Source of the DNA: Leucoraja ocellata
Taxonomy: Eukaryota
NCBI GenBank assembly: GCA_036785375.1
Contig: JAWMAR010000563.1
Coordinates: forward strand, 1,054,001-1,118,000
DNA length: 64,000 nt
Direction: 5' to 3'
The translations under genes and the position numbers were made by a program. This document shows, piece after piece, positions 8,375 through 50,500 of this stretch (the first letter of the stretch is position 1; the number at the start of each line of letters is the position of its first letter). The notes below the pieces were generated by a model. The model was not told the DNA's origin. It searched no databases and saw only the letters and a program-made list of their open reading frames with translations.

Positions 8375-8449
8375 GATGAGATTATCCTGCTTTGGTGTTG
8401 GTGAAGTTTGGCTCAGTTGCTGCTGTTGATGCGAGAGGTTGTACGCGCA

Positions 8450-8500
8450 ATGATTCTGTTCATCTTGCTGAGTTTCTTCCACGTACAAGGGGCTCTTGCA
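8450..8500 (+). CDS. Putative MHC class I exon 1 (signal peptide [17 protein letters not shown])
   Basis: ATG at 8450, 17 hydrophobic codons ending in A-L-A, immediately followed by GTAAGG donor. Sits in non-repeat sequence 76 bp after the Y-box-like motif. Donor phase (0) does not match the canonical exon 2 acceptor (phase 1). Confidence 0.7.
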
Positions 8501-23500: not shown

Positions 23501-26500
23501 CCCCTGATCCCTTTAGCCACAAGGGCCACATCTAACTCCCTCTTAGATGTAGCCAATGAACTGGCCTCAACTACCTCTGTGCCAGAGAATTCCAGAGATT
23601 CACCACTCTCTGTGTGAAAAATGTTTTTCTCATCTCGGTCCTAACAGATTTCCCCCTTATCCTTAAACTGTGACCTCTTGTTCTGGACTTCCCCAACACC
23701 AGGAACAATCTTCCTGCATCTAGCCTGTCCAACCCCTTAAGAATTTTGTAAGTTTCTTTAAGATACCCCTCAATCTTCCAAATTCTAGCGAGTACAAGCC
23801 GCGTCTGTCCAGTCTTTCTTCATATGAAAGTCCTGACATCCCAGGAATCAGTCTGATGAACCTTCTCTGTACTCCCTTTATGGCAAGAACGTCTTTCCTC
23901 AGATTAGGAGACCAAAACTGTACGCAATACTCCAGGTGTGGTCTCACTAACCCCCTTTACAACTGCAGTAGAACCTCCCTGCTCCTATACTGAAATAGGA
24001 GGGATCATGACAGAAGCCTCCTCGTGGCGATCCCCGGAACCGACGACACGATGCACTCTGTGACGCGTCGGGCGACCAGTTCTCTCAACATGTTTGACGA
24101 CGACAGAAACCAACAGCGAAATACACACTGTCTGACACACCAGTGGATGAATCCTTGTTAGACTAATCAACTGAAGGTTACGACTTATGAAGGTTACGAT
24201 GTGATGCAAATAGTTGAATGTGCAGCACAGAAACAAGCCCTTTGACCCACCAAGTCCATGCTAACCCTTTTGGTACCTGATCTCTTTTTATCTTCCTGAT
24301 ATTTCCAATACCTACCCCTAAATGTTACTCTTTAACGACACACGGAGTAATGTATGGTGGCCTGTGAACCAAATAACTGCCATGACTTACCTTTGTGGGT
24401 GGAATATCTGAATATCATATTATTTCCACATGTTGATTGGTTAGGGCGGGCGGCACGATGGGGCAGTGATAGAGTTGCTGCCTTAAAGTGCCAGAGCCCC
24501 GGGTCCGATCCTGACTAAGGGTGCTGTTTGTAGGGAGTTTGTACGTTCTCCCCATGACCAGTGTGGGTTTTCTCCAAGATGTCCAGTTTCCTCCCACACT
24601 CCAACGACGTTCAGGTTTGTTGGTTAATAGGCTTGAAATAAATGTAAATTGTCCTTCGTGTGTAGGATAGTGTTAATGTGCTGGATTTGTGCCGACTCGT
24701 TGTGCCGAAGGGCCTGTTTCCACTCTGTATCTCTAAACTAAAATAATCTAAGTAAGCTTGACATTTAGAATCATATACAACATATAAACAGGCCCTTCAG
24801 CCCAGCTTATCTATGCTGGCCAAGATGCCCCAAATATTCTTGACCCACCTACCTACATTTTAGCTTAATTTAATTTATTATTAATGTGACGCGTACTGTT
24901 TTCCAGTGAAAATATTTCTTGTGTGCTATCCAGTCAGTGAAAAGACTACATTGCAATGAAGCCGTTCACAATCGATAGATAGAGGGTAAAGGGTGTCATG
25001 TTTAGTGCAATGTAAATCTGATTGGTGTTTTGCCGATTTCCCTCCAAACCTTTCCTATCCATAGATATTTCCATTACTAGACAATAATTGTATTTTATTT
25101 GTGTCTAGGGCCTCACACACTGATCTATTACTACACCCTGAACCACAGGAGTACTCATCTAGAAGAATATAGTTTTGTGGGTGTTCTGGACGGTTGTGAG
25201 ATACAGTATTATGACAACAACATGGACATTGCAGTCCCAAGACAGAAATGGATGGCGGCTGCATTTGACCGGAAGTACTGGGTAACAGATACGTTCACCG
25301 AAACTGGTTTCCATGGAATCATCAAAGGGCAAGTGGATGAATGGATGCGGAGGCACAACGAAACAGCAAGTTAGTTCATGCATTTCAATAAATTTGGATA
25401 GTGATCAATGTAAATAAAACAAATCTCAAAGAAATACCTCGCTGTAGCAGAGATCCAGGTTTGATCCTGATCTCGAGCAAGTTTACACATTCTCCCTGTG
25501 ACCACACATATTTCCTCCAGGTGCTCCAGTTTTGTCCTATATCTTGTAAACGTGCAGGTTTGTAGGTTAATTGGGCTCTGTAAATTACTCTCGTTGTAGT
25601 GCGGAGCTTCGGTGAGAATGTGGATAACATACTGTAGATGTGTAGGAATGAACTGCAGATGCTGGTTTACAGCAAAGATAGACACAAAATGCTGGAGTAA
25701 CTCAGCGGGACAGGCAGCATCTCTGGATAGAAGGTATAGTTTTGGGTCGAGACCCTTCCTCAGACATCACCCATACCTTCTATCCAGAGATGCTGCCTGT
25801 TCCACTGAGTGACTTCAGAATTATGAATTGATGATCGATGGTCGGCATGGACCGTTTCCATGCTGTGTCCAACCTAATTAATAACTGCAAATGCTGGAAA
25901 TGTGAAATAAAAAACAAAATGTCAGTGGAGGAGGGGAGGGGGTGTGGTGTGAGGGAAGGGGAGGTGGTGGAGGGGGATAGATAGTGTGGGGGCGGATGGG
26001 GGAGGGGGTGGCGGGAGGTGGAAGATCAAAGGAGCAACTGGTGTGTGTGATACTTTATAACTTTGTTGGTGCCCTTTATGTGAAGATTCTTTGCAGAGTC
26101 AAAGTACTGTATATGAATGCGCGACGTATAAGGAATAAAGTGGATGAGCTTGAGGCTCAGTTAGAAACTGCCAAGTATGATGTTGTGGGAATTACTGAGT
26201 CATGGCTGCATGAGGGCCAGAGCTGGGAACTGAATATTCAAGGATATACCTCCTATTGGTGTGGTAAATTGGATTAGTAAGTATGCAGATGATACCAAGA
26301 TAGGGGGTGTTGTGGATAATGAAGAGGATTTCCAAAGTCTACAGAGTTATTTTGGCCATTTGGAAGAATGGGCTGAAAGATGGCAGATGGAGTTTAATGC
26401 TGATAAATGTGAGGTGCGACACCTTGGCAGGACAAATCAAAATAGGACATACATGGTAAATGGTAGGGAATTGAAGAATACAGTTGAACAGAGGGATATG

Positions 26501-29500
26501 GGTATAACCATGCATAGTTCCTTGAAGGTGGAATCTCATATAGATAGGGTGGTAAAGAAAGCTTTTGGTATGCTAGCCTTTATAAATCAGAGCATTGAGT
26601 ATAGAAGCTGGGATGTAATGTTAAAATTGTACAAGGCATTGGTGAGACCAAATCTGGAGTATGGTGTACAATTTTGGTCGCCCAATTATAGGAAGGATGT
26701 CAACAAAATAGAGAGAGTACAGAGGAGATTTACTAGAATGTTGCGTGGGTTTCAACAACTAGTTACAGAGAAAGGTTGAATAAGTTAGGTCTTTATTCTC
26801 TGGAGCGCAGAAGGTTAAGGGGGGACTTGATAGAGGTCTTTAAAATGATGAGAGGGATAGACAGAGTTGATGTGGACAAGCTTTTCCCTTTGAGAATAGG
26901 GAAGATTCAAACAAGAGGACATGACTTCAGAATTAAGGGACAGAAGTTTAGGGGTAATATGAGGGGGAACTTCTTTACTCAGAGAGTGGTAGCGGTGTGG
27001 AATGAGCTTCCAGTGGAAGTGGTGGAGGCAGGTTCGTTGGTATCATTTAAAAATAAATTGGATAGGCATATAGATGAGAAGGGAATGGAGGGTTATGGTA
27101 TGAGTGCAGGCAGGTGGGACTAAGGGAAAAAAGGTTGTTCGGCACGGACTTGTAAGGCCGAGATGGCCTGTTTCCGTGCTGTAATTGTTATATGGTTATA
27201 TGGTTATTGAAAAGACAGACAGGTGGGCAGAGGGGGTGGGGTTGCCCTGTTGGTGAGGAATTAAATTCAGTTCCTTGCAAGGGGTGACATTGAAACAGGA
27301 GGCGTGGAGTCAGTATGGATAGAACTAAGGAACTGTAAGTGTGAAAAGACCCTAATGGGACTAATCTACATGCCCCCAAACAGTAGCCTGGAAATAGGGT
27401 GCAAGTTGAATCAGGAATTACAATTGGCATGTAGTAAAAGTAATGCTGTGGTTGTTATGGGAGATTTCAACATGCAGGTAGACTGGGAAAATCAGGTTGG
27501 TATAGGACCCCAAGAAAAGGATTTTGTAGAGTGCCTTTGTGATGGATTCATAGAGCAGCTTGTATTGGACCCTACCAGGGAGAAGGCAATTCTGGATTTA
27601 GTGGTATGTAATGAACCGGATTTGATAAAGGACCTTGAGGTTAATTAATCAAGCCATTAGGAGGCAGGGACCATAACATGGTCAGGTTTAATCTACAATT
27701 GGAGAGGGAGAAGAGTAGATTGGAGGTGTCAGTGTTGCAGTTGAGTAAAGGGGACTATTGGGCCATGAGGGAGAAGCTGGCCAAAGTTGACTAGAAAGAT
27801 ACACTAGCAGAGATGCCAGTGGAACAAAAATGGCAGGTGTTTCCAGGAATAATACAGAAGGTGCAGGATCAGTTCATTCCTAGGAGGAAGAAAGATTCCA
27901 AGGAGCGGAAGGAACGACCATGACTCACAAGGGATTAAGGGACATTATAAAAACTAAAACGATGAAGACCAAAGTTGGACCCTTGAAGACCGAAAAAGGT
28001 GAATTTATTATGGGGAACAAGGAAATGACAGATGAGTTGAACAGGTACTTTAGATCTGCCTTCACTAACCATATAACAATTACAGCACGGAAACATGCCA
28101 TCTCGACCCTTCTAGTCCGTGCCGAACACATATTCTCCCCTAGTCCCATATACCTGCGCTCAGACCATAACCTTCCATTCCCTTCCCGTCCATATAACTA
28201 TCCAATTTATTTTTAAATGATAAAAACGAACCTGCCTCCACCACCTTCACTGGAAGCTCATTCCACACAGCCACCACTCTCTGAGTAAAGAAGTTCCTCC
28301 TCATGTTACCCCTAAACTTCAGTCCCTTAATTCTCAAGTCATGTCCCCTTGTTTGAATCTTCCCTACTCTCAGTGGGAAAAGCTTTTCCACGTCAACTCT
28401 GTCTATCCCTCTCATCATTTTAAAAACCTCTATCAAGTCCCCCCTTAACCTTCTGCGCTCCAAAGAATAAAACCCGTAACTTGTTCAACCTTTCTCTGTA
28501 ACTTAGTTGCTGAAACCCAGGCAACATTCTAGTAAATCTCCTCTGCACTCTCTCTATTTTGTTGACATCCTTCCTATAATTAGGCGACCAAAATTGTACA
28601 CCATACTCCAGAATTGGTCTCACCAATGCCTTGTACAATTTTAACATCACATCCCAACATCTATACTCAATGCTCTGATTTATAAAGGCCAGCAAACCAA
28701 AAGCTTTCTTTACCACCCTATCTACATGAGATTCCATTTACCATGTACGTCCTATTTTGATTTGTCCTGCCAAGGTGAGCACCTCACACTTATAAGCATT
28801 AAACTCCATCTGCCATCTTTCAGCCCACTCTTCCAACTGGCATAAATCTCTCTGTAGACTTTGAAACTCTACTTCATTACCCGCAACCCCACCTATCTTA
28901 GTATCATCTGCATACTTACTAATCCAATTTACCACACCATCATCCAGATCATTGATGTACATGACAAACAACAGTGGACCCAACACAGATCCCTGTGACA
29001 CCCCACTCGTCACTGGCCTCCAACCTGACAAACAACCATCCACCATTACTCTCTGGCATCTCCCATTCAGCCACTGTTGAATCCACCTTGCTACTCCACC
29101 ATTAATACCCAACCATTGAACCTTCTTAACCAACCTTCCATGAGGAACCTTGACAAGGGCTTACTGAAGTCCATATACACAACATCCACTGCTTTACCCT
29201 CATCAATTTCCCAAGTAACATCTTCAAAAAATTCAAGAAGATTAGTCAAACATGACCTTCCAGGCACAAATCCATGTTGACTGTTCCTAATCAGACCCTG
29301 TTTATCCAGATGCTTATATATATTATCTCTAAGTATTATTTCCATTAATTTGCCCACCACTGACGTCAAACTAACAGGTCTATAATTGCTAGGTTTACTC
29401 TTAGACCCCTTTTTAAACAATGGAACAACATGCGCAGTACGCCAATCCCCCGGCACTATTCCCGTTTCTAATGACGCTTGAAAGATTTCTGCCATAGCCC

Positions 29501-32500
29501 CTGCTATTTCTACACTAACTTCCCTCAATGTCCTAGGGAATATCCTGTCCGGACCTGGGGACTTATCCACTTTTATATTTCTCAAAAGTGTCAGGAGGAC
29601 ACAAAGAATATTCCTGATATAGTAGTGGCCAGAGGATCTGGGGTGACAGAGGAACTGAAGGAAATCCACATTGCGCAGGAAATGGTGTTGGATGGACTGA
29701 TGGGACTGAAGGCTGATAAATCCCCAGGGGCTAATGGTCTGCATCCCAGGATACTTAAGGAAGTGGCTCTAGAAATCATGGATGCATTGTTGATAATTTT
29801 TGACTCGGGATCAGTTCCTGTGGATTGGAGGGTAGCTAATGTTATCCCACTTTTTATGAAAGGCGGGCGAGAGAAAACAGGGAATTATAGACCCGTTAGC
29901 CTGACGTCCGTGGTGGGGAAGAGTCAATTATAAAAGATGAGATAGCCGCACATTTGGATAGCAGTAACAGGATCGGTCCGAGTCAGCATGAATTTACAAA
30001 GGGGAAATCATGCTTGATTAATCTTTGGGAATTTTTTGAAGATGTAACTAAGAAAATGGACAAGGGAGAGCTAGTGGATGTAGTGTACCTGGACTTTCAG
30101 AAAGCATTTGATAAGGTACCTGGAGTAGCAATGTTACAAAATTTTGAGATTTAAAAAATCAAGTCTGCAATTTATCCCATCAGATAAAGCATAACAATAA
30201 GTTTAATTTGACACCAAATTCACTTTCATATCTCAAGTATTAAAACAGTTATGACCATTTTCATACTCGGAAATTAGCATCTTGTTCCCTATTGATTTTC
30301 AATGGACATTACAAAAAAGCTGTGATCTTGGATAGTCAAAAGCCCATTTCTTAAGGAAAGATTAACATTTTTAAATAGCCTAAGTGTCCAAAGATTATTC
30401 ACAAATAATTCACAATATAACATGATTTTTATATCTAATTTACATTAATTTATAGGCCAAATGGAAGGAATTTAGTGTTCAATTGCTGTAAATAAATGCC
30501 CATTTAAATCGGCTTTCTAGTGGGTTCATGTGGAACGCGCCGGTTTAGAACGTTGACATAGCGCTGGATCAGTGCCCTCAAGTGCCGAGAAAAATACTGC
30601 GGGATATAAAAAGCCCAAAATGAGCTATTCGTTATAGATAATTTGATATATAGGGTTATATATATGCCCCATTTAATGTAAAAATAAGGTACATACCTTT
30701 AATTGTTTGCTCTATAAAACCCTGGGGCTGCGAGAGGTTGCGAGATGAAACAGTAATTTTAAATCTATTAGAACTATATTATCGAGGCCTATAAAACTAA
30801 TAATACCTTTTGCGACCGGGTCTTGCAGCGATTTTTCGTTAATGATTTACTAGGCTGAACATGTGCGATTAGTACAGCCTAGTAAAAATCGCGTTTTAAA
30901 CCCGCCCCCTCCAAACAGCGCCAAAATCGCGGGCCTGGCTGAGGGCAGATTCCCAATGGCGATTCAGGTAGGTTTTGTAACATACCTACCTGGAGTGAGA
31001 ATTGGAAGAGCAAATATGTAAGGAGATTGCAGATATTAGTAGTAAGCACAAGGTAGTGATTGTGGGAGATTTCAATTTTCCACACATAGACTGGGAAACA
31101 CATTCTGTAAATGGGCTGGATGGGTTGGAGTTTGTAAAATGTGTGCAGGATAGTTTTTTGCAGCAATACATAGAAGTACCTACTAGAGAAGGGGCGGTAC
31201 TGGACCTCCTGTTAGAAAATGAGATGGGTCAGGTGGCAGAGGTATGCGTTGGGGAACAGTTCGGGTCCAGTGATCACAATACCATTAGTTTCAATATAAT
31301 TATGGAGAGGGACAAAACTGGACCTAGGGTTGAGATTTTTGATTGGAGAAAGGCTAACTTTGAGGAGATGCGAAAGGATTTAAAAGGAGTAAATTGGGAC
31401 AGTTTGTTTTATGGGAAAGATGTGGAAGAGAAATGGAATACATTTAAAGGTGAAATTTTAAGAGTACAGAATCTTTATGTCCCTGTTCGGTTGAAAGGAA
31501 ATCGTAAAAATTGTAAAGAGCCATGGTTTTCAAGGGAAATTGGACACTTGGTTCGGAAAAAGAGGGAGCTCTACAATAATTATAGGCAGCATGGAGTAAA
31601 TGAGGTGCTTGAGGAGTATAAAGAATGTAAAAAGAATCTTAAGAAAGATATTAGAAAATCTAAAAGAAGATATGAGGTTGCTTTGGCAAGTAAGGTAAAA
31701 GTAAATCCGAAGGGTTTCTACCGCTATATTAATAGCAAAAGGATAAAACGAGGGATAAAAAGGACAAAACGAGGGATAAAATTGGTCCATCAGAGAGTCA
31801 GAGTGGACAACTATCTGCAGAGTCAAAAGAGATGGGGGAGATATTGAACAGTTTCTTTTCTTCGGTATTCACCAAGGAGAAGGATATTGAATTATGTGAG
31901 GTAAGGGAAACAAGTAGAGTAGCTATGGAAACTATGAGGATCAAAGAAGAGGAAGTACTGACACTTTTGAGAAATATAAAAGTGAATAAGTCTCCAGGTC
32001 CGGACAGGATGTTCCCTAGGACATTGTGGGAAGTTAGTATAGAAATAGCAGGGGCTATGACAGAAATATTTCAAATGTCATTAGAAACGGGAATAGTGCC
32101 AGAGGATTGGCGTACTGCGCATGTTGTTCCATTGTTTAAAAAGGGGTCTAAGAGTAAACCTAGCAATTATAGACCTGTTAGTTTGACGTCAGTGGTGGTC
32201 AAATTAATGGAAAGGATACTTAGAGATAATATATATAAGCATCTGGATAAACAGGGTCTGATTAGGAACAGTCAACATGGATTTGTGCCTGGAAGATCAT
32301 GTTTGGCTAATCTTCTTGAATTTTTTTTAAAAGGTTACTCAGGAAATTGATGAGGGTAAAGCAGTGGATGTTGTATATATGGACTTCAGTAAGGCCTTTG
32401 ACAAGGTTCCTCACGGGAGGTTGGTTAAGAAGGTTCAATGGTTGGGGATTAATGGAGGAGTAGCAAGATGGATTCAACAGTGGCTGAATGGGAGATGCCA

Positions 32501-35500
32501 GAGAGTAATGGTGGATGGTTGTTTGTCAGGTTGGAGGCCAGTGACTGGTGGGGTGTCACAGGGATCTGTGTTGGGTCCACTGTTGTTTGTCATGTACATC
32601 AATGATCTGGATGATGGTGTGGTAAATTGGATTAGTAAGTATGCAGATGATACTAAGATAGGTGGGGTTGTGGATAATGAAGTAGATTTTCAAAGTCTAC
32701 AGAGAGATTTATGCCAGTTGGAAGAGTGGGCTGAAAGATGGCAGGTGGAGTTTAATGCTGATAAGTGTGAGGTGCTACATCTTGGCAGGACAAATCAAAA
32801 TAGGACGTACATGGTAAATGGTAGGGAATTGAAGAATGCAGGTGAACAGAGGGATCTGGGAATAACTGTGCACAGTTCCCTGAAAGTGGAATCTCATGTA
32901 GATAGGGTGGTAAAGAAAGCTTTTGGTGTGCTGGCCTTTATAAATCAGAGCATTGAGTATAGAAGTTGGGATGTAATGTTAAAATTGTACAAGGCAAAGG
33001 TTGAACAAGTTAGGGCTTTATTCTTTGGAGCGCAGAAGGTTAAGGGGGAACTTGATAGAGGTCTTTAAAATGATGAGAGGTATAGACAGAGTTGACGTGG
33101 ATAAGCTTTTCCCACTGAGAGTAGGGAAGATTCAAAGAAGGGGACATGACTTGAGAATTAAGGGACAGAAATTTAGGGGTAACATGAGGGGGAACTTCTT
33201 TACTCAGAGAGTGGTGGCGGTGTGGAATGAGCTTCCAGTGAAGGTGGTGGAGGCAGTTTCGTTTTTATCATTTAAAAATAAATTGGATAGTTATATGGAT
33301 GGGAAAGGTATGGAGGGTTATGGTCTGAATGTAGGTGTATGGGACTAGGGGAGAATTTGTTTTCGGCACGGACTAGAAGGGTCGAGATGGCCTGTTTCCG
33401 TGCTGTAATTGTTAAATGGTTATTATATGGTCCCACATAGGAGATTAGTGGGCAAAATTAGGGCACATGGTATTGGAGGTAGAGTGCTGACATGGATAGG
33501 CAATCGGTTGGCCGACAGGAAACAAAGAGTATGGATTAACGGGTCCCTTTCAGAATGGCAGGCAGTGACTAGTGGGGTACAGCAAGGCTCGGTGCTGGGA
33601 CCGCAGCTATTTACAATATACATCAATGATTTGGATGAAGGGATTCAAAGTAACATTAGCAAAGTTGCAGATGACACAAATCTGGGTGGCAATGTGTACT
33701 GTGAGGAGGATGCTATGAGAATGCAGGGTGACTTGGACAGGTTAGGGGAGTGGGCAGATGCATGGCATATGAAGTTTAATGCGGATAAATGTGAGGTTAT
33801 GCACTTTGGTAGCAAAAATAGGAAGGCAGTTTATTATCTAAATGGCGTCAAGATGGGAAAAGGGGAAGTACAACGGGATCTGGGGGTTCTTGTACATCAG
33901 TCTATGAAAGTAAGCATGCAGTTACAGCAGGCAGTGAAGAAAGTGAATGGCCATTCTAACAAGAGGAGTCGATAATAGGAGCAAAGAGGTCCTCTGCAGT
34001 TGCACAGATCCCTAGTGAGACCACACCTGGAGTATTGTGTGCAGTTTTGGTCTCCTAATTTGAGGAAGGACATTCTTGCTATTGAGGGAGTGCAGCGTAG
34101 GTTTACAAGGTTATTTCCTGGGATGGCGGGACTGTCATATGCTGAGGGAATGGAGCAGCTGGGCTTGTGCACTCTGGAGTTTAGAAGGATGAGAGGGCAT
34201 CTCATTGAAACATATAAGGTTGTTAAGGGTTTAGACATGCTTGAGACAGGAAACATGATCCCGATGTTGGGGGAGTCCAAAACCAGGGGCCACAGTTTAA
34301 GAATAAGGAGTAAGCCGTTTAGAAGGGAAACAAGGAAACACTTTTTCTCACAGAAAGTGGTGAGTCTGTGGAATTCTCTTGCTCAGAGGGCAGTGGAGGC
34401 AGGTTCTCTGGATGCTTTGAAGAGAGAGCTGGCCAGGGCTCTTAAAAATAGCAGAGTCGGGGATATGGGGAGAAGGCAGGAACGGGGTACTGATTGGGGA
34501 CGATCAGCCATGATCACATTGAATGGCGGTGCTGGCTCGAAGGGCCGAATGGCCTACTCCTGCACCTATTGTCTATTGTCATACCTTGGGTATTCATTAG
34601 GACCACATATTCATGATTCATGATTAATTACTTTTTAAAACATTGCTTTTTGTTACCTCTTTGGTTACACATTAAACAAATTATATTTAATCTTTAACCC
34701 TGGGACAGGTTAAGGTGTGTACAATACCTCAAAATATTATGCGCTGGGCATAATTTCTATCAATTTTCCATGCAATATTTATTATTATATTTTCTTGCAA
34801 TAGTTATTATTATTTTCAAATTACATGTGAATTAACGTGAATGACATTGATGGGATTATCGTCAGATTCATTGAACCATGTTTATCGAATCATATTGCCG
34901 TCAAAAATAAGATTTTTTTATTTGCATTAATCATGGTGCTCATATTATCTGCAACATTGTTATGTTTATGAGATTTATGAGCATATTGCTGGGGCTCCAG
35001 GGTGTGAACAAGAGGGAGAGATAGGGCAAGCCAGGGCTTTATTCCATGGAGCACAGGAGGCTAAGGGTGATCATATTACTAAGGGTAATACTAAGGGTGT
35101 ACCAGTTTTTATACCTTAACCTGTCCCAGGGTTAAAGATTAAATATAATTTGTTTAATGTGTAACCAAAGAGGTAACAAAAAGCAATGTTTTAAAAAGTA
35201 ATTAATTATGAATCATGAATATGTGGTCATACTAAGGGTGGACTTACCTGGAGCTGTGAGTATAAAAACAGCGCGGGGCTTGCTTTCTACAGAGGCCCGG
35301 GGAGCCGTTGGTGCGAGGAGGATTTACCTGGAGCTGTGAGTATAAAAACAGCGCGGGGCTTGCTTTCTACAGAGGCCCGGGGAGCCGTTGGTGAGAGGAG
35401 GACTTACCTGGAGCTGTGAGTTGCCCAAATCACCAACGTTCCATCTCACTTCCAGAGAAAGATTCTGATTCTGGTGGAAGCCTCTGATTGGTGGAAGAGG

Positions 35501-38500
35501 ACCAGCAGAAGCAGCTGATTGGCTGATTGGCTTGTATTGTATTTGTATTGTAATTGTATTTGGATAAGGGGGGCAATGAAGGCCAGGGCAGTTTACTGTT
35601 CTGGATGTGGGAGGTCATGGAGTCGGAGTGCCCTCCAGACGTCCACATCTGCGCAAGGTGCGTCGAGATGGAGCTCCTAAGGGACCGTGTCAGGAACCTG
35701 GAACAGCAACTCGATGACCTCTGTCTGCTCAGGGAGAGCGAGGAGGTCATAGAAAGGAGTTACAGGGAGGTGGTCACTCCAAGACCACGGGAGACAGAAA
35801 ACTGGGTCACAGTTAGGAAGGGCAACGGGCAGAGGCAGGGACTGGTGAGTTTAGTAGATTAATCGACTACTGCATATGTCTCTTGTAAAGGTGGATTTGT
35901 GGCATTGATAGAAATGAGGAAGATCTGTTTTGGGGAAAATTAGTGATGGAATAATTTTGTTCTCTGGGCTAGAGTGGGCTCAGGAGGCTTGGATTAGTAA
36001 GTATGCAGATGATACTAAGATAGGTGGGGTTGCGGGTAATGAAGTAGAGTTTCAAAGTCTACAGAGAGATTTATGCCAGTTGGAAGAGTGGGCTGAAAGA
36101 TGGCAGATGGAGTTTAATGTGTGAGGTGCTACATCTTGGCAGGACAAATCAAAATAGGACGTACATGGTAAATGGTAGGGAATTGAAGAATGTAGGTGAA
36201 CAGAGGGATCTGGGAATAACTGTGCACAGTTCCCTGAAAGTGGAATCTCATGTAGATAGGGTGGTAAAGAAAGCTTTTGGTGTGCTGGCCTTTATAAATC
36301 AGAGCATTGAGTATAGAAGTTGGGATGTAATGTTAAAATTGTACAAGGCATTGGTGAGGCCAATTCTGGAGTATGGTGTACAATTTTGGTCGCCTAATTA
36401 TAGGAAGGATGTCAACAAAATAGAGAGAGTACAGAGGAGATTTACTAGAATGTTGCCTGGGTTTCAGCAACTAAGTTACAGAGAAAGGTTGAACAAGTTA
36501 GGGCTTTATTCTTTGGAGCGCAGAAGGTTAAGGGGGGACTTGATAGAGGAGCAAAGACCGCTCCCTCCATAACTCCCTTGTCAATTCTTCCCTTCCCTCT
36601 CGGTCCACCCCCTCCCCGGGCACTTTCCCTTGCAACCGCAAGAGATGCAACACTTGTCCCTTTACCTCCCCCCCCTCGACTCCGTTCAAGGACCCAAACA
36701 ATCGTTCCAGGTGCGACAGAGGTTTACCTGCATCTCTTCCAACCTCATCTATTGCGTCCGCTGCTCTAGATGTCAGCAGATCTATATCGGTGAGACCAAG
36801 CGGAGGTTGGGCGATCGTTTCGCCGAACACCTCCGCTCGGTCCGCAATAACCAAGCTGACCTCCCGGTGGCTCAGCACTTCAACTCCCCCTCCCACTCCG
36901 CCTCCGACCTCTCTGTCCTGGGTCTCCTCCATGGCCACAGCGAGCAGCACCGGAAATTGGAGGAACAGCACCTCATATTCCGTTTGGGGAGTCTGCACCC
37001 CTGGGGGCATGAACATCGAATTCTCCCAATTTTGTTAGTCCTTGCTGTCTCCTCCCCTTCCTCAGCCCCCCTGCTGTCTCCTCCCATCCCCCAGCCTTCT
37101 GGCTACTCCTCCTTTTCCCTTTCTTGTCCCCACCCACCCCCCGCCCCCGATCAGTCTGAAGAAGGGTTTCGGCCCGAAACGTTGCCTATCTACTTCGCTC
37201 CATAGATGCTGCTGCACCTGCTGAGTTTCTCCAGCTTTTTTGTGTAACCTTCGATTCTCCAGCATCTGCAGTTCCCTCTTAAACTTCCAGATAATGGAGT
37301 TGGGCAGGTACAATAACAATATTTAAAAGACACTGCATGGGAAAGGTTTCAGTGATACAGTTTCTACCCATTGCAGGGTAAATGGGACTAGCTTAGATGG
37401 GGTATCCAGGGCTGCCAACTCTCACGCTTTGAGCGTGAGACTCACACCCTCAAGCAAACTCTCACGCCCTCACACTGATCAGACATTTCTCACACTCAGC
37501 GGTGAGAAATTTTGTGATCAACGAAAATTTTAAAACTCGGATAAACTGCAGGGTCCGCGGGTGTTGGAGAGCCGGGGCTGCGGGAGGGATGGGAGCAGAA
37601 CCAGTGGCGGGAACAGATGCGGGGAGCCGGGACTGTCGAGTGCTTGCGGCGCTGACAAGTCGCTCGCTGCAGCTCTGGCCATGGAGCACTCAGGACAGTG
37701 CAAGTTGCGGGCCGCCGGAAGCTCCCAAAGGGTGGTGGAGAGAGAGAGGGGGTAATGAGACAGGGAGACAGGGGGTGGGGGGGGGGGGGGTGAAAGGGGA
37801 GTGAGAGGAGAGTGAGAGTGGAGAGACAGAGGGGGCATGAATGGTGAGGGAGAGGGGGGAGAGAGGGGGGGGGGGTGAGGTGGGAGAGGGAGGAGAGGGT
37901 AGGAGAGAATGAGAGAGAGGGGGAAAGAGAGAGATGGGGGCAAAGAGAAAGAGGAGAAAGAGCCAGGGGGAGAGTGAGGTGGGAGGGAGAAATGGGGGAG
38001 AGAGAGAGAGATGAGAGAGAGGGGGAAGAGAGAGGTGAGAGGAGAGACAGAGAGAGAGGGGAGATTGTGTAGAGAGGGAGAGATAGAGAGGGAGGGAGAA
38101 AGAGAGAGAGGCGAGAGAGAGAAGAGTTAGGGGAAAGAGGGGGGAGAGGGGACGAGAGAGAGGGGGAGAGTGAGGTGGGAGGAGGGGGAGAGAGGGGAAG
38201 AGAGACTTGGGGGAAAGAGAGGGGAGAGAGAGTTGGGGGAAAGAGAAGGGAGGGGGAGGGCAAGAGAGGGGGAAGAGAGGAGAGAGAGAGAGGGAGAGAG
38301 AGAGGGGGGAGAGAGAATAGAGAGGGAAGGGGAGAGGGGTGAGACAGGGGAGAGAGGGGAGGGGGAGGGGCGAGAGAGAGGGGGAGAGAGAAGGGGAAGA
38401 GGGAGAGGGAGATAGAGAGGCAGGGCTGCCAACTCCCATGCATTGAGCGTGAGAATCCCGCATTTCACCAAATTCTCACGGTGATCACAAATTTATCTCG

Positions 38501-41500
38501 CTCTGTTGTGAGAAATTCTGTGATCAAAGAAAATGTCAAAACTCATATCAACTGCATGGGTCGCAGGTGTTGAAAGCAGAAGCAGCGGCGGGGACAGATG
38601 CGGACGGGGAGCGGGACTGCCGAGTGTTTGCCGGCTGGCGAGTTGCTCATTGCAGCTCCGGCCATGGAGCAGCCTCAGTGCAAGAGTCCCGGGCCGTCGG
38701 AGGCGGCGAAGCGTTGCGCCGCTGCCGTGAGAGTCTCTGTGCCGAATTCACCCAGGTGACCAGCATGGATCAGGCTGGGGCTCGGTGTATCCTGGAGGAC
38801 AACCAGTGGCTGCTGGAAGTAAGTACCAAACACTGGGTAGATACGGTGGAAGATAGTGGACTTCAAATTGGGGTGGTTGGTGAAAGCATCCTGCTTGCCT
38901 GCTAGATTTTCACTTACTGTAACTGCAGGAAATATGTTCCCGATGTTGTGGGCATTCAGAACCATGGGTCACAGTTAAAGAATAAGAATAGGACTGAGAT
39001 GAGAACAAACTTTCTTCACGCAGAGAGTTGTGAATCTGCGGAATTCTCTGCCACAAGGCAGTGCAGGCCAATTGAACGTGTGGACCCTTTGTGTGGATAA
39101 AGTTACCCCTTAAAAAGTTACCTCTTAAAAATACCTCATACAAAAAACATAGAAATCATACTTCTACAGTGCGCTAAAACATGATTATAATACATCAAAT
39201 TTAAAAAAGTTCCTACCCTGGAAGGGGGGACACCTTTCTTCCACACCCTCTCCCCACTCAGTTGCTCCACTCCCTCACTGGGTACCCCCAAGGCCAGTGA
39301 TCAGTGATTGCACAGCCTCCCCCCTTTCAAAAATGCTCCAATACAATTTAAAGCATATACATTGCATTCAAGTGTAAGTTAAAAGACTCGCTACAGTATG
39401 CACCATATTGCACAATTTCAAGCTGAAAAATAAAAATGTTCCATACCAATGGGAGGGGGACCCCCTCACCCCTCCCACCCCACTCCCCCCTCCCACCCCC
39501 TCATCCCTCCCACCCCCACTCCCCCCTCCCACCCCCTCCCCCCCCCCCCCCCATCCCCCCGGTCGCTATGCTCCCTCGGGCTTGGTCTCTCGCAATCTCT
39601 CACTCCCAAACTCTCACCCAATGTTGGCAGCCCTGGGGTATCTAGATTAGCATGAACAAGTTGAGCCAAAGGGCTTGTATCCATGCTGTGCAACTCTCTC
39701 TATGACTGCTTTAGAGCAACGAGTGCTGCTGGCTCACAGCTCCAGTGATCTGGGTTCAATCCTAATCTCCAGTGCAGTCTGCAGGAGGTATAAGCATTCT
39801 CCCTGTGACAATGTTTGTTCTCCAGTTTTCTCCCACATACCAAAAATGTGCTGATTTAGTAGATTAATCGACTACTGCATATGTCTCTTGTAAAGGTGGA
39901 TTTGTGGCATTGATAGAAATGAGGAAGATCTGTTTTGGGGAAAATTAGTGATGGAATAATTTTGTTCTCTGGGCTAGAGTGGGCTCAGGAGGCTTGGATT
40001 AGTAAGTATGCAGATGATACTAAGATAGGTGGGGTTGCGGGTAATGAAGTAGAGTTTCAAAGTCTACAGAGAGATTTATGCCAGTTGGAAGAGTGGGCTG
40101 AAAGATGGCAGATGGAGTTTAATGCTGATACGTGTGAGGTGCTACATCTTGGCAGGACAAATCAAAATAGGACGTACATGGTAAATGGTAGGGAATTGAA
40201 GAATGTAGGTGACCAGAGGGATCTGGGAATAACTGTGCACAGTTCCCTGAAAGTGGAATCTCATGTAGATAGGGTGGTAAAGAAAGCTTTTGGTGTGCTG
40301 GCCTTTATAAATCAGAGCATTGAGTATAGAAGTTGGGATGTAATGTTAAAATTGTACAAGGCATTGGTGAGGCCAATTCTGGAGTATGGTGTACAATTTT
40401 GGTCGCCTAATTATAGGAAGGATGTTAACAAAATAGAGAGAGTACAGAGGAGATTTACTAGAATGTTGCCTGGGTTTCAGCAACTAAGTTACAGAGAAAG
40501 GTTGAACAAGTTAGGGCTTTATTCTTTGGAGCGCAGAAGGTTAAGGGGGGACTTGATAGAGGTTTTTAAAATGATGAGAGGGATAGACAGAGTTGACGTG
40601 GAAAAGCTTTTCCCACTGAGAGTAGGGAAGATTCAAAGAAGGGGACATGACTTGAGAATTAAGGGACTGAAGTTTAGGGGTAACATGAGGGGGAACTTCT
40701 TTACTCAGAGAGTGGTAGCTGTGTGGAATGAGCTTCCAGTGAAGGTGGTGGAGGCAGGTTCGTTTTTATCATTTAAAAATAAATTGGATAGTTATATGGA
40801 TGGGAAGGGAATGGAGGGTTATGGTCTGAGCGCAGGTATATGGGACTAGGGGAGATTATGTGTTCGGCACGGACTAGAAGGGTCGAGATGGCCTGTTTCC
40901 GAGCTGTAATTGTTATATGGTTGTTATATGGTTATATGGAAAGGCCTCTTTCTCTGTCACACGGAATCATAGGCAGTTATTTACCCTTGAATTGCCTTCT
41001 TATTTTAGTCAACTGTAAAATTGAACTAATTGGCTAGATTGAACTATTTAAAAATTCTAGATTAAAGGAAGTGCAGATGCTGGTTCATACAAAAAACTCA
41101 AAGTGCGGGAGGAAATCAGCGGGTCAAGCAGCGTCTGGAGAACATGGATCAGTGACATTTCGGGTGGGGATCCGATTTCAGACTGAAGTCATGTCACGTT
41201 AGAACATGCATTGTACTCACACTCAGTCCAGTGTTAGTTTTCAAGGATGTTTGTTATTCATAGCTTGTAGTTGTTACATATTTAGCAGAGAGAAGACGAG
41301 ACAAACTAAAGCACCTGTAAAATTCAACTAAAAGACTGCAGAAAGAAGCGTGAGAAGAAGGCTCTTATCTAAACAATGTACTTTCAAGAGTGATTTAGAT
41401 TTAGCTCTTAAGGCTAAAGGAATCAAGGGATATGGGGAGAAGGCAGGACCAGGATACTGATTTTAGATGATCAGCCATGATCATATTGATTGGTGGTGCT

Positions 41501-44500
41501 GGCTCGAAGGGCCGAATGGCCTACTCCTGCACCTATATTTCCAAGTTTCTATAATTAGTATATAGTCGGCTATTTGTGGTGTTTCTTGAAAAGAAAAAGA
41601 TGAGAGACACTGAAAGACCTGCAGAACACAAATAAATGACTGCAGCAAGCAACTTGAAATGAAGACCCGTTACCTAGACAACATCATTACTTATTATTCA
41701 GCTATCAATGTTTGTGATGTTTCTTATTGGAATTAAAACATCATCCAAGTTTTGTCCCTTCCTTATTGCTACTGGTTGGCATAAGCTTTTTTATGCCAGA
41801 GAGAATGAATCACCTAAGAATACCAAGGAAAGGTAGAGCAGTCACACATCACTGGATATCTTTAACATCTTAAACATTTGGAAAGTGGTGAAATCATTGG
41901 ACAAAGTCAGCATGGATTTACGAAAGGTAAATCATGCCTGACGAATCTTATAGAATTTTTCGAGGATGTAACTAGTAGAGTGGATAAGGCAGAACCAGTG
42001 GATGTGTTATATCTGGACTTTCAGAAGGCTTTCGACAAGGTCCCACATAAGAGGTTAGTATACAAACTTAAAGCACACGGTATTGGCGGGTTCAGTATTG
42101 ATGTGGATAGAGATGGACTGAAATGAGGAAAACATTTTTCACACAGAGTGGTGAATCTCTGGAATTCTCTCCCGCAGAGGGTAGTTGAGGCCAGTTCATT
42201 GACTATATTTAAAAGGGAGTTGGATGTGGTCCTTGTGGCTAAAGGGATCAGGGGGTATGGAGAGAAGGCAGGTACAGGATACTGAGTTGGATGATCAGCC
42301 ATGATCATATTGAATGGCGGTGCAGGCTCGAAGGGCCGAATGGCCTACTCCTGCACCTATGTTCTATGTTTCTATGTTTAACCTGTTCAATGCCACCCCC
42401 GAGTACACTCGGGTCATGGCCACTAGTAAAATTAAACTTGGCAGGGAACAGCTTCATGATCTCCATAGTTTAGAGAAATCCTTCAATGGCCATGAGGGGT
42501 GAGCCTTATATATATATTTCTCTAACCATAGGAAGCACTTTTGTGGTGAAAGAAGGGTCAGCTCGGGTCTCGAAAGGATCCAACCTTTGCAGCTTTATAT
42601 TTGTTTATATGCAATAAGCAAAGAGAACACAATATAAGATAAAAAATGATCATAATTATCAGCAAAGCCAATAGATCATGCGGCACAGTGGCACGGTGGT
42701 AGAGTTGCTGCCTTACAGCACTTGCAGCGCCAGAGACGTGGGTTTGATCCTGACTACGAGTGGTGTCTGTACAGAGTTTGTACGTTCTCACAATCAATCA
42801 ATCAATCAATCAACCTTTATTGTCATCTTGCAAGCAACAAGTACAGTGCAAAATGAAAAGACGTTTCCCAGTGAATAGCGGAGCCTCGCACATGAAATTT
42901 AAAACACTTCTCACATAATAACACTAAAAAAACAATCCAGTCCCTGATGGAACAGAATAAATAGTTAAAATCAGGTAAGAAACACAATGTTAAAATACAG
43001 TAAACCAATTATAAAAAAATGTCCGGGGCCGCTGATTTAAGTGGCCAGTGCCAGTTATTAAAGTGTCGCAGCCGCAGAGTCAAGTCAAGTGACTGTGAGT
43101 GCAGAGTGACTGTTTAGCAGCCTCACCGCCTGTGGTAGGAAGCTGTTTAGCAGCCTCGTAGTCCGGGCTTTGATGCTTCGATATCTCTTGCCTGATGGCA
43201 AGAGATCCAGGTGTGTGTGGAGGGGGTGCAGTTTGTCCTTGGCAATTCTCTGTGCTTTCTTCAGACAGCGGCTCTGGAACAGTTCTTGTACCGAGGGTAG
43301 GGAGACGCCAATAATCCTCTCTGCTCCCCTCACTACCCTCTGCAGAGCCTTCCTGTCCGAGCAGTTGCAGGTGCAGTACCACGTATTGATGCAGTACGTG
43401 AGTACAGACTCCACCGTGCCCCTGTAGAAAGTCCTGAGGATGTTGGTGGGGAGTGAGGCCTGTTTTAGTTTCCTCAGGAAGTGCAGTCGCTGATGGGCCC
43501 GTTTGACGGTCCCAGTGGTGTTCCTGGACCAGGTGAGGTTGTCCGTTATCTGCACACCGAGGAACTTTATGCTCTCCACTCTCTCCACTGCAGTGCCACT
43601 AATGTTGAGCGGTGTATGCTCAGGCTGCGCCCTCCTGAAGTCGACAACCATCTCCTTAGTTTTTTCGACATTCAATTCTAGGTTATTTTTGCCGCACCAG
43701 TCCACCAGTTGTTCTACTTCCTCCCTGTACCTTGTTTCGTCATCTCCACTGATGAGTCCCACCACTGTAGTGTCGTCCGCGAACTTTATGATTTTATTGT
43801 CCCTGAATCTGGCAGCACAGTCATGTGTGAGCAGTGTGAACAACAGCGGGCTGAGCACACAGCCTTGAGGGGAGCCGGTGCTCAGCGTGATCGAGCCTGA
43901 AGTGTTCTTGCCAACACGGACTGACTGCGGTCTCTCTGTCAGAAAGTCCAAGATCCAGTGACACAGGGTGGTGTTGAGGCCCAGCAGGGTTAGTTTCTCC
44001 ACAAGTCTCTGTGGGATGATGGTATTAAACGCTGAGCTGAAGTCAATGTACAGGATTCTGGCGTATGTGTTCTTGTGTTCCAGATGCGCGATTACTGTGT
44101 GCAGCGTGGTGGAGATGGCATCCTCTGTAGAGCGGTTGGGGCGATGGGCAAACTGTAGGGGGTCTAACGATGAGGGGAGGCTGGCAGTAATGTGGGGTTT
44201 CACCAGGCGTTCAAAACACTTCATTATTATTGGGGTCAGGGCAACAGGGCGGTAGTCATTTAGGCAGGCAACCACCGTGACCTGTGTGGGTTTTCTCCAT
44301 TATCTTCGGTTTCCATCCACACTCCAAAGACGTACAGGTTTGTAGGTTAATTGGCTCGGTATAAATGCGCCTAGTGCGTGTAAAATAGTGTTAATGTGTG
44401 GGGATCACTGCTTGGTGTGGACCCGGTGGGCCGAATGGCCTGTTTCTGCACTGTATCTCTAAACTAAAATAAGCTAAACCAAGCTTGCAGTGAGGAGTTT

Positions 44501-47500
44501 CCCCAAAAAGTTCAGCCATCCAATAACTTAGCCTCATAAGGTGGAAGGAGGAACTGCTTGGTCAACTGAAAAAGTACAGAGGTTTAGAGAGAGAGTTGCT
44601 ATAATCACTGATGGAAACATTTCAACACACAATACTAATGACACAGGGTAGCATGGTGGCACAGCGGTAGAGTTGCTGCCTCACAGCTACAGAGACCTGG
44701 GTTCGATCCTGACTCCGGGTGTTGTCGGTACGTAGTTTGTACATTGACCTCGTGACTGTGAGGGTTTTCTCTAATTGTTCCAGTTTCATCCAACAATCCA
44801 AAGACTCACATGTTTGTAGGTTAATTGGCTTCGGTAAAAATTGTAGATTGTACCTCGTATGTGGGATAGTACTGATGTACAGATATTGCTGGGCGATGAG
44901 GGCACAGTGGGCTGAAGGGCCTGTTTTCATGCTTTATCTCTAACCTAACTAAAGTAATTGTCCTTGTAACAAATATGAGCTTATTTCACACCTGGGGCAT
45001 ATATCCAGGGTTTCTTTCCTTTCATCTTAATTCCGCTCAAAGGAAGAGCCATCGTTAATATAGGATCAGGTCGGCATTCTGTAGTGATGTTTCTGCCAAA
45101 GGCAGAATTCTTCCAACTTCTCCAAACATATTGCTGCCTCACAGTGCCATAGACCAAGGTACAAGACTGCTGTCTGTATGGAGTTTGTACGTTTTCCCCG
45201 TGACCGCTTGAGTTTTCTCAGAGATCTTGGTTTCCTCCCACACTCCAAAGACATACAGGTTTGTCGGCTAATTGGCTTTGTATAAATGTAAATTGCCCCT
45301 AGTGTGTGTGGGATAATGGGGGGTGGGGGTTGTGCGTGGGGGGCTGGGTGTGCGTGGGGGGCTGGGTGTGCGTGGGGGGCTGGGTGTGGGCAGGGGGGCT
45401 TGTGGTGGGGAGGGGCTTGTGGAGACATCGGCGACATCTCCGACTGGGCTGGGTCACCGACTCCGGGCTGGGTCTCCCACGTTGGACTGGGCTGGGTCAG
45501 GTCTCTGACGCTGGGCTGCTGCTTGGGGAGGGGCTGGGCTGGGTTGGATCTCTCCGAAAGACTGGTTGGAAACCTACGCCGGCCACGTTCAGCTCCTGTA
45601 AAGACGCGATGGCGCAGGAAGGGGTAGACCGTTCCGGGGAGTGATGGGGATGAGACTAATCTGCGCGACGCCGACTGGCAGGAGAAGAGATCGATCTGCG
45701 CATGCGCGTTTTTAAAGATTTTGAAACCTCGCTAACATTTACGGCATTCATCCGATCGGAACGAAACTTGGTGCACTCGCAGCACAGGAGAACGGTGAGT
45801 GAACTGGTGAAATATCGTTGCACTATCGCAATCCATTTTTGCACAAATAAAAAGACCGCCAAACCGGAAGATAACAAGATGAGAGTTGTACATATGTATA
45901 GATAGATAGATAGATTATTAGTAAGTACAGCATATAACCCTCCATCATTATCGCCACCTCCAGCAGGATCCCATTACTAGCCACTTCCCATCTCACCACT
46001 TTCTGCTTTGTGCAGAGACCGTTCCCAAGGAAAACTCCCTGGTCAACTCATCCCTTCACACACAAACCACCCCCATCCCGGGTACTTTCCCCTGCAACTG
46101 CAGGAGATGCAACGCCTGTCCCTTTACCTCCGCCTTCACCTTCCCGCTCTACTCCATCCAAGGCCCCAAAGTCTTTCCAGGTGAAGCAGAGGTTCACTTG
46201 CTCCTCCCCCAACCTCATCTACTGTATCCACTGTTCCAGTTGTCAACTTCTCTGCATCGGCGAGACCAAGCGCAGGCTTGGCGATCATTTCACTGAACAC
46301 GTCCGCTCAGTCCGTCTTAACCTACCTGATCTCCCGGTGGCTCAGCACTTCAACTTCCCCTCCGATTCCCAATATGAACTTTCTGTCCTGGGCTTCCTCC
46401 ATTGTGTGAGTGAGGCCCAGTGCAAATTGGAGGAACAGCACCTCTTATTTTACTTGGTTTAGTTTATAGTCCATAGTTATGAACAATTTAGTATACCCTC
46501 CAGCAGTATAAACATTGACTTCTCTATCATTCGATAGCCCTTGCTTTCTCTTTCCATCCCCTCCCCTTCCCAGTTCTCCCACCAGTCTTACTGTCTCTGC
46601 CTATATTCTATCTTTGTCTCTCCCTTGACATCAATCTGAGAAAGTGTCTCGACCAGAAACGTCGCACATTCCTTCTCTCCAGAGATGCTGCTTGTCCTGC
46701 AGCATTTTGTGTCTACCTTCGGTTTTAACCAAGAGAATAGACAATAGGTGCAGGAGTAGGTCATTTGGCCCTTCGAGCCAGCACCGCCATTCAATGTGAT
46801 CATGGCTGATCATCCACAATCAGTACCCCGTTCCTGCCTTCTCTGCATATCCCCTGACTCCACTATCTTTACAAGCCCTATCTAGCTCTCTCTTGAAAGT
46901 ATCCAGAGAACTGGCCCTCACTGCCCTTCCTGAGGCGGATAATACCACAGACACCACTCTCTGTGAGAAAAAGTGCTTCCTCGTCTCCGTTCTAAATGTC
47001 TTACTCCTTGGAGAATAGAAAGATCAGTGTGGAGAATACGAACATGCAGGGGCTCTTTGAAGGTAAATAAGAAGGAAATGATGGGTCACTTGATGAGCAT
47101 TAAGGTGGATAAATCCCAGGACGGAGGGATGTAGTAGATAATAATAATAATAATAATAATAATAATTGTTGAAAACATTAGTGAGGCAGTGGTGCTGGAT
47201 TACAACCGGCATGGTGAAGGTCACATCCCTCCTCTGTCCTCCATGCAGCTGGCAAGCTCCTCTTATCTACTATACACATGCGTCTTCCATCAAGCATCAT
47301 CTTGATTGGCCGTCCTGGGTCAAGTCTTCCATGGGTGGGTTCCCACAGCACAACCTTTTTTACTGCCATTTCAAGGTGGCGGAACCACATCATCCTTCTC
47401 AACGTGATCTTCTCGGTCAGAGGTGGAGTCTCGCCATAGAGTTGATGATGTGGTTTTAATGTTTTATGTAAAGCACTTTGAATTACCTTGTTGAAAGGTG

Positions 47501-50500
47501 CTATACAAATAAACTTGCCTTGCCTTGCCGTGCCTGCAACTGTCAATTTGAGTTTTTCTGAGCATTCGGGTGTAGGTACCATCGAGAGACTTGGACAGTG
47601 CTGGAGTGAGAGTCCATGCCTCACACCCGTACAATAATATGGTATCTACAGTTGCACGGAAGGTCAAATATTCAGGCTGTAGTTCAGTGACAAGTAGAGT
47701 TCTGCAGGGACCTGTGCTGTGACCCTTGCTACTTGTGACATATAGAAATGACTTGGACCCTGGAGATCAGAAATTACCCAGTCTTAACAATAAATCAAAT
47801 AATGATTTTGTTTTTCTTTCAGAATATCACTATACTCAAGGTCAGTTTGGTTGTCAGGTGAACGATCACAGTCCCAATTTAGGGATATTGAAGTTGGCTT
47901 TTGACGGAAGATATGCATTTAGTTTCGACAAGGACAAACTAAAGTGGACGGTGCATGATCCAATAGCTGAACCCTTCAAAGAGAAATGGGACAAGAATGA
48001 AAAAATGAACCGTTATTTCAAGAGCTTGTTAGAACATGACTGTGTGGATTATTGGCGTACATACTATGCAATTGGAAAGACATACCTGACCAGAAAAGGT
48101 GAGTTCTGAAAAAGTGTTGTTTTGCGATGGTAAGCAATGAGTAAGATATCACTCTGAGGCAATGAGTAATATTATCTCTGACCCAATCATGACAGAATGA
48201 AAGGTAATTCGGCCCATTGAGTCGATGCTCATTTTCAATGAAATGTCGACAAACTGCTCCACAGCTCTCTCTCACACCTTGAACTCTGCTCCCTCGGATT
48301 CTCCTTTCATTCAGCTCCACTACGGATAATTTGCAATGTCCAACTAATTCACTGGCACGTCTTTGGTATATGGGATGAAACTGGAGCACATGGAGGAAGC
48401 CAACTGAGTCATAAGGTCACTAGTGATGGGTGCAGTATTAGAACATTCGGCCCATCAAGTCTACTTCGCCATTCAATCGTGGCTGATCTATCTCTCCCTC
48501 CTAACCCCATTCTCTTGCCTTCTCCCCATAACCCCTGACCTGCATACTAATCAAGAATCTTTCTATGCCTTAGAAATATCCATTGATAGACTATAAAGCC
48601 TTCTGTGGCAAATAATTCCACAGACTCACCACCCTCAAACAAAATTAATTCCTCATTAACTCCTTCCTCAAGGATTGTCCTTTAATATTGAGACTGTGAC
48701 GTCTAGTCGTAGACTCTCCCACCATTGGAAACATCCTCTCCACATCCACTCTATCCAAACCTTTTCACCATTTGGTATGATTCAATGAGGTCCACCCTTA
48801 TTCTTCTAAACTCCAGCGAGTACATGTCCACTACCATCAAATGCTCATCATATGTTAACCCACTCATTCCTGGGATCATTCTTGTACACCTCCTCTGGAC
48901 CCTCTCCAGGGCCAGCACATCCTTCCTCAGATATGGTGCCCACAATTGCTCACAATGCTCCAAATGTGGCTTGACCGGCACCTCAGCATTACATCCCTGT
49001 CTGACAGGGAGAAAGTGTCATTGATGTCTTTCATATTAGTTAACCATGGATTTACTTGACCACAGTTGACAGCCCCTAATGGGATTGCATGTCTATCACA
49101 CAGATCTATAGAGCACTGTGTTAAGCTTCGAAGGGCAACATTTACACGAGATGTGCGCATCAAGTGTATTTTTGCATAGTGTGCTTGATACTTAGAATGT
49201 GCAACCAGGAGTGGTGGTAGAGAGGGACATGATACTGGTGCTTAAGAAAGTTTTGGACAGGCTTGTGGATATGCAGCGAATACAATGATATGGACCACAT
49301 GCAGGCTGTGGAGATTAGTTTTGGTTTAGTTTAGAGATAGAGTATGGAAACAGGACCTTTGGGCCACTGAGTCTGCACTGACCAGCAATTGCCCATTCAC
49401 TATTTCCGTCCTACAAGCTAGGGACAATTTACAGAAGCCAATTAACCTGCATGTCTTTTGTATTTGGGAGGAAACCGGAGCCCCCAGAGAAAACCCACAG
49501 AGTGACAGAGAGAGAACGTACAAACTCCGTCCAGACAGCACTCTAGTCAGGATCGTACCCGGATCTATAATGCTGTTAGACATCCACTCTATCACTGTGC
49601 CAATGTGTTGCCTTAGTTTAACCTGGCTGAAAGTCCTGTTCTTGTGCTGTACTGGTCTATGTTCTATATATTCTCATTGGACCGGGCAGGGATACGTTTT
49701 TCCACTCCTCCAGCCTCCATATTGAGTACTTCATCCCAGTTTAAATCTGATTAAATTAGTCAATCCATTTCTCCCTCCCCTCCTGCTCTGCTCCCCATTC
49801 TATATTTTGAACTAGTCATTCCCTTTTCACTCCCTGGTCTGTCTACTATCCCCACTACTTTCCTCTACTTTCCTGTCTTGGTGCATGCAACATCTATCCA
49901 TTTACCTCTTCCCTTCCCACTGTCCATAGACCCAGGTAGTTCTTCAAAGAGAAACAGCGTGAAACACTTGCACTTCCATTCAAATCTACTGCACTTGGTT
50001 TTCATGATGTAATCTTCCACATTGCATCAATGAAACAAAGTGAGTGGCTGTTTTCTGGAGAACCTGCATTCAATCCATGGGAATTTCTAAAATTCCTAAT
50101 TCCTGCCACTTTAATTCTCAATTCGACCCCCACCATGATCCATCCATCTGTATCTCTTACACTATGATAACAAGGGTGAAAGTAACCTTGAGGAGCAACA
50201 AATCAGCTTCTGTCTGGACATGTTGCAGCCTTTCAAACTCAATTTCACATTCAACAAGTTGCATTCCCGGTCGATAAATGAACTGGTCATTTCAAGTGTT
50301 AAGTCAGAAAGAACAGATGCAAGAAGTATGAAGCAGGATCCCAAGCTGAAACATTACGTAACCATGTCTTCCAGATGCTGCCAAAGCCACTGAGTTACAC
50401 CTACATGATTTTTTGTGTTTTAAAAAAAAATTACAGTTAAGTTATCCACCTGCAAAATCACGACAGCCTGACATACATGAGTACTGCAGTATGTGCTGCA

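Follow-up and report, generated by a model that had tools for sequence, protein, structure and literature searches.

A skate MHC class I gene of the elasmobranch UGA lineage, with a probable lipid-binding groove and a CD1b-type tail motif

[quoted passage not shown] The question is raised by a stretch of 64,000 nucleotides from Leucoraja ocellata (assembly GCA_036785375.1, contig JAWMAR010000563.1, hereafter C563, positions 1,054,001 to 1,118,000 of the forward strand), called the window below and numbered from its first letter. On its + strand, the window carries four exons that code for the leader, alpha1, alpha2 and alpha3 of a single MHC class I gene, and the three domain exons join into 268 stop-free residues. 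The initial annotation had read the locus as a non-classical class I gene and a candidate presenter of non-peptide ligands, of a lineage either known or undescribed. We find that it is a skate member of UGA, a lineage of non-classical MHC class I genes already named in elasmobranchs, and that UGA is probably a class Ib molecule that binds, and likely presents, lipids.

The gene is already known, through the named lineage, a near-identical skate sequence in a 2023 supplement and a deposited structure. In the part of that supplement (S10 of Verissimo et al. 2023, PMC10751288) that was available for comparison, to which every statement on S10 below refers, the entry "Lerinacea_UGA" equals the window ectodomain at 261 of 268 residues by eye, with one difference in alpha1, four in alpha2 and two in alpha3. 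In the databases, the nearest proteins are Leucoraja erinacea RefSeq models (265/268 identical), followed by Amblyraja (251/268), Rhinoraja (226–234, full-length models) and other rays and sharks (155–189); on these matches, the window would come from a skate very near to L. erinacea. Among structures, the top sequence hit is PDB entry 9CH4, titled "Crystal structure of shark nonclassical MHC CLASS I, UGA" and released on 2026-03-18 (E 1e-114, against 3e-48 for the next hit), which is 57–58% identical to skate UGA without gaps and whose chain 9ch4_A is the same as the S10 entry "Gcirratum_UGA" over the aligned stretches. A template-free model of the protein P0023, 265/268 identical to the window, has a predicted local distance difference test score (pLDDT) of 88.3 and adopts a predicted class I fold that again matches 9CH4 best (template modelling (TM) score 0.96, root-mean-square deviation 1.4 Å; Z 29.8, against 24.2 for the next among 48,161 chains); an earlier fold from a 10-row alignment was poor (pLDDT 54.7) and served only to obtain the 9CH4 title.

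In a 51-row tree, the window falls in a 20-row clade of shark and ray UGA sequences (support 100/99), apart from UAA, UBA, UDA and UEA, outgroup labels assigned by eye against S10; UFA, UHA, CD1 and MR1 were left out of this tree, and one intended row (P0229) was lost at the coverage filter. The S10 UGA entries, the match to 9CH4 and the UGA clade lead us to reject the undescribed lineage that had been kept as an option beside a known one. An allele of UAA is rejected by the lost anchors, the low variation and the separate clade, while UFA, UDA, UEA/UCA, UBA and UHA are rejected because, compared by eye, their entries in S10 stand much further from the window sequence; skate UDA sits on another contig, C392. 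With Lerinacea_UGA, Gcirratum_UGA and 9CH4 the window gene shares both the clade and the fixed groove residues, the differences from them being at the level of alleles (Y167, R169, K91, H85 and L110 in HLA numbering).

The span first assigned to the gene, 25109–48098, takes in the alpha1 and alpha2 exons, whose identity is borne out by splice sites, an open frame and Pfam and PDB matches, and leaves outside it the leader, alpha3, transmembrane and tail exons. The full layout is as follows.

8429–8500, + strand: leader (signal peptide) exon, from tblastn with the RefSeq protein, the sequence and pairwise comparison with contig C2088
25109–25369, + strand: alpha1 exon, 261 nt, 87 codons, with the N86 sequon; AG/GT ends, phase 1, PDB hit
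25370–47822, + strand: alpha1–alpha2 intron, 22.5 kb, with many retroelement-like fragments, from six-frame translation and RNA reads
47823–48098, + strand: alpha2 exon, 276 nt, 92 codons, with C101–C164; AG/GT ends, phase 1, Pfam, PDB and RNA reads
57165–57431, + strand: alpha3 exon (Ig C1-set); AG/GT ends, phase 1, Pfam C1-set 2e-18
C563:1121077–1121184, + strand: transmembrane exon, about 3 kb past the window end, from tblastn with the RefSeq protein and the sequence
C563:1125908–1125948, + strand: tail exon with YQNI, about 8 kb past the window end, from tblastn with the RefSeq protein and the sequence

The leader exon has a second in-frame ATG at 8450. The best PDB hit of the alpha1 exon is 9ch4_A (E 5e-34); on its own this exon has no Pfam hit, yet it matches class I structures. 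The alpha2 exon matches Pfam MHC_I (E 5e-13) and 9ch4_A (E 2e-34). Pieces in the six-frame translation of the long intron are what we take to be reverse-transcriptase-like. An extra cysteine at HLA position 31 of the alpha1 exon is kept in most UGA proteins.

Is the gene intact and expressed? UGA is one locus, present on two near-identical contigs, C563 and C2088, and each copy has a flaw. On pairwise comparison, the leader donor of the window copy is at phase 0 and one G short relative to C2088 (window 8500–8501), so that the leader and alpha1 are no longer in frame with each other, and the C2088 copy has a one-base deletion within alpha1. Taken as they stand in the assembly, these two single-base deletions would make the gene null in this individual, its leader donor being lost in one copy and its alpha1 in the other, a reading that we consider very improbable. 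The contigs share 99.7–99.9% identity, with short scattered gaps (7 gap openings over 6.2 kb), and each is whole at the place where its counterpart has lost a base, so that the losses are probably long-read consensus errors of the assembly. Moreover, full-length UGA proteins of 334–341 aa are present in RefSeq and Logan, and all five coding exons are otherwise open.

Four sequencing runs were aligned to alpha2. RNA run X10, sampled at about 5%, gave nine reads; in four of them the alignment breaks off exactly at 47823 and the unaligned letters are those of the alpha1 end, which shows that the 22.5 kb intron is spliced out and that the gene is transcribed. RNA run X14 gave three reads, with depth mainly on the alpha2 exon, and X17 a single read off the exon, while run X4 covers the alpha2 stretch as unspliced DNA and may be the source of this assembly. 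The reads of X10 also show T>G at 47879, an L-to-V change that RefSeq has too; together with the species label of the RNA runs, which differs from that of X4, this indicates expression of an orthologue or of another allele.

What, then, does the groove look like? HLA numbering was taken by eye from the published alignment in S10, which holds both HLA-A2 and L. erinacea UGA, and all 20 residue features named in the initial annotation stand on it. The window gene keeps Y7, Y59, R84, the N86 sequon, K146, W147 and Y171, carries the replacements F143, L159, A123 and Y167, and faces the groove with F70, I73, I74, W81, F99, L114, L116, M152 and F156. Five residues (F99, L114, W147, F156 and L159) are fixed in all 20 UGA rows, T143 is absent from all of them (F in 14), and W81 and G97 occur in 19. 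R84 is present in only five rows, all from skates, with Q, K or E in the other 15, and Y167 in only two, with L in the other 18, so that neither is a trait of the lineage. Compared with shark UGA, the skate molecule retains R84, and its alpha1 helix, bearing D63, T66, E67 and Q77, is more polar. Mean groove hydropathy, calculated over 32 groove-facing positions chosen by reference to the HLA pockets, comes to 0.20 in the window gene, 0.20–1.16 across the UGA rows and −0.56 to −0.12 in four UAA-type rows.

Classical UAA (PDB 6LUP; Triakis alleles) resembles UGA in fold (TM 0.91), in exon layout and in six of eight peptide-terminus anchors, but it is only 32% identical, forms a separate clade and is more variable, and the UAA-type rows keep all eight anchors and polar grooves. 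Skate UGA alpha1–alpha2 sequences comprise five distinct forms among six records, differing by 1–6 residues at six variable sites, whereas 13 class I sequences from a single 90% cluster of Triakis differ by 1–26 residues at 34 sites; these counts come from database proteins only, and the sample is small and may combine two loci or species. The high allelic polymorphism of classical UAA is thus not seen in this small skate sample, and this, with the position outside UAA in the tree, agrees with the non-classical status first proposed. MR1 is distinguished by lysine 43, its Schiff-base residue, and an aromatic cradle. Before P47, the window strand reads D-I-A-V, with no lysine, and several orthologues have a lysine there, in an informal comparison; MR1 structures match the fold model at 28–29% identity.

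The proposal of a non-peptide ligand gains support from a 2025 review, which reports as a personal communication that crystal and mass-spectrometry data suggest binding of CD1d-like lipids by UFA and UGA (PMC12562908). The main text of PMC10751288, in the part available, calls only UFA CD1-like, and we found no primary paper on lipid binding by UGA or UFA beyond the 2023 paper and the 2025 review, in a search that did not cover most subscription journals, where one may be in print. Besides, the short tail of skate UGA contains YQNI, which is identical to the tyrosine motif of human CD1B; such motifs are among the characters that identify CD1 genes, according to the part of PMC5002281 consulted. 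The window gene thus has the short tail with a tyrosine sorting motif of CD1-type molecules, and a YxxI/V after the membrane segment occurs in 11 of 18 UGA proteins, compared with none of 12 proteins of a neighbouring sister gene, described below, and none of 13 other class I proteins.

We therefore favor, as the probable function, a membrane protein that likely pairs with beta-2-microglobulin and whose hydrophobic groove likely holds lipids that are shown to T cells much as by CD1. W81 and F143 would fill the pocket for the peptide C-terminus, and L159 together with L or Y167 would remove the N-terminal hydrogen-bond network, while the small floor residues G97, A123 and T95 may deepen a cavity predicted to be lined by F70, I73, I74, F99, L114, L116, M152 and F156; a closed groove is less likely. 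The YxxI tail motif would route UGA through endosomes for lipid exchange. By the report and the tail motif, UGA quite probably works like CD1 (human CD1b and CD1d, chicken CD1-1), with which it shares the class I fold, a hydrophobic groove lining, low variation and the short YxxI tail. Membership of the CD1 family does not appear to follow, given a tied fold ranking, 19–24% identity in structural alignments and the kept anchors Y7, Y59, K146, W147 and Y171, which are missing from the CD1 rows in S10. Shark UFA (PDB 8GM8), the other elasmobranch lineage reported as CD1-like (PMC12562908 and the available part of PMC10751288), is only 28% identical to UGA (Z 21.2), and its S10 rows have a shorter alpha1 end and no K146 or W147, unlike UGA.

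Several points weigh against lipid presentation. Among the 20 UGA rows, the groove of the window allele scores lowest in hydropathy, and a UBA row (0.26) and a UEA row (0.27) equal or exceed it, so that this allele is only moderately hydrophobic; it also retains six of the eight peptide-terminus anchors, having lost those at F143 and L159, short of the eight kept in classical class Ia molecules. The tail motif is missing from 7 of the 18 UGA proteins (some may be wrong 3′ models), the lipid evidence for UGA comes from a review, as a personal communication, the skate UGA protein has no match to MHC_I_3, the Pfam family of CD1 type, and the leader donor of the window copy is one base out of frame. 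The fold is not specific to CD1 either, chicken CD1, HFE, ZAG and H-2Kd being tied at Z 23.5–24.2.

The low hydropathy, the six anchors and the polar alpha1 helix would suit a molecule of the HLA-E or Qa kind, in which the kept Y7, Y59, R84, K146, W147 and Y171 hold a restricted range of hydrophobic peptides or lipopeptides. We regard this as distinctly unlikely, since T143 and Y159 are lost in every UGA row, 15 of the 20 rows have Q, K or E in place of R84, the residues W81 and F143 are bulky, and lipid binding has been reported for the lineage. Somewhat less improbable, though still unlikely, is a role in which UGA binds a lipid or fatty acid as structural, non-presented cargo, in the manner of ZAG, HFE or EPCR, with a partner other than the T-cell receptor. 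The tie of ZAG and HFE with CD1 in the fold ranking would fit such a cargo protein, as would the conserved, little-varying UGA sequence; a table in PMC12562908 marks invariant natural killer T-like cells in cartilaginous fish with "?", and the literature searched yielded no T-cell data on UGA. Membrane anchoring with a CD1b-type tail motif argues against it, as do a UAA-type alpha1 exon about 97 kb away and the near-identical paralogues (several in Rhinoraja, three in Pristis), which suit an immune ligand-display gene.

The UAA-type alpha1 exon lies at C563:965505–965771, upstream of the UGA leader, and no alpha2 or alpha3 partner of it scored on contig C563. With one UGA locus and a UAA-type exon on the same contig, the skate shows the low copy number and MHC linkage expected of the lineage. 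Other species carry more copies: Pristis and Pristiophorus have three UGA-like proteins each, and Rhinoraja longicauda has ten in RefSeq on one 41.5 Mb sequence, with six distinct alpha1–alpha2 forms among the eight compared (1–10 residue differences). The Rhinoraja sequences suggest that this gene, elsewhere given as single or low copy, has recently expanded there.

A second class I gene lies about 48 kb downstream on the minus strand (C563 about 1174330–1185500), tail-to-tail with UGA, with a second copy on C2088. It is 98–100% identical to RefSeq XP_055486430.1 and 37–46% identical to UGA, with short motifs in common; its leader was not found, contig C563 ending just upstream of its alpha1. 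Relatives at 53–100% identity make up 14 of 79 hits, from 12 shark and ray species, and 11 rows of this sister gene form a clade (100/100) that is sister to UGA at 100/99. Their grooves are the most hydrophobic of the set over the same 32 positions (1.08–1.39), with one or two of eight anchors kept, and the gene has neither the N86 sequon nor a tyrosine tail motif. By eye, it matches none of the 26 labelled entries in the available part of S10. Callorhinchus rows resembling the S10 entry "Cmilii_UGA" branch beside the UGA–sister pair with weak support (85/83), so that the authors of PMC10751288 may already count the sister gene within UGA. A broken copy of its alpha2 with an in-frame TGA lies at C588:10516–10764 and resembles RefSeq P0206.

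Four RefSeq isoforms of L. erinacea LOC129716032 (X1–X4) fuse UGA to a GPR139-like G-protein-coupled receptor (GPCR). No GPR139-like exon occurs in C563:1118001–1176000, the 58 kb downstream, and the fusions therefore probably stem from read-through or a modelling artefact at another copy; no near-identical GPCR was found among 134 scored of 4354 candidates in the genome. The GPR139-like family is very large here, its 134 scored places being 53–71% identical to the protein P0012; one member lies at C563:978833–979708, between the UAA-type exon and UGA, and another next to the damaged copy of the sister gene on C588.

A class I molecule that presents lipids in sharks and rays would have a bearing on the question of how old CD1-type immunity is. 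For UGA this question is already under study, with a named lineage, a sequence in the 2023 supplement and a structure released in March 2026, and the window adds one allele; possible additions are the CD1b-identical tail motif, the UGA copy expansion in another skate and the conserved sister gene. The sister gene is a more interesting lead than UGA itself and, if not already counted within UGA, a third lipid-groove candidate. By analogy with mammalian CD1b and CD1a, the two genes may tentatively be seen as an old pair, the sister being an unnamed class Ib lineage, in which the task of surveying lipids would be shared out, UGA recycling through endosomes and the sister residing at the surface.

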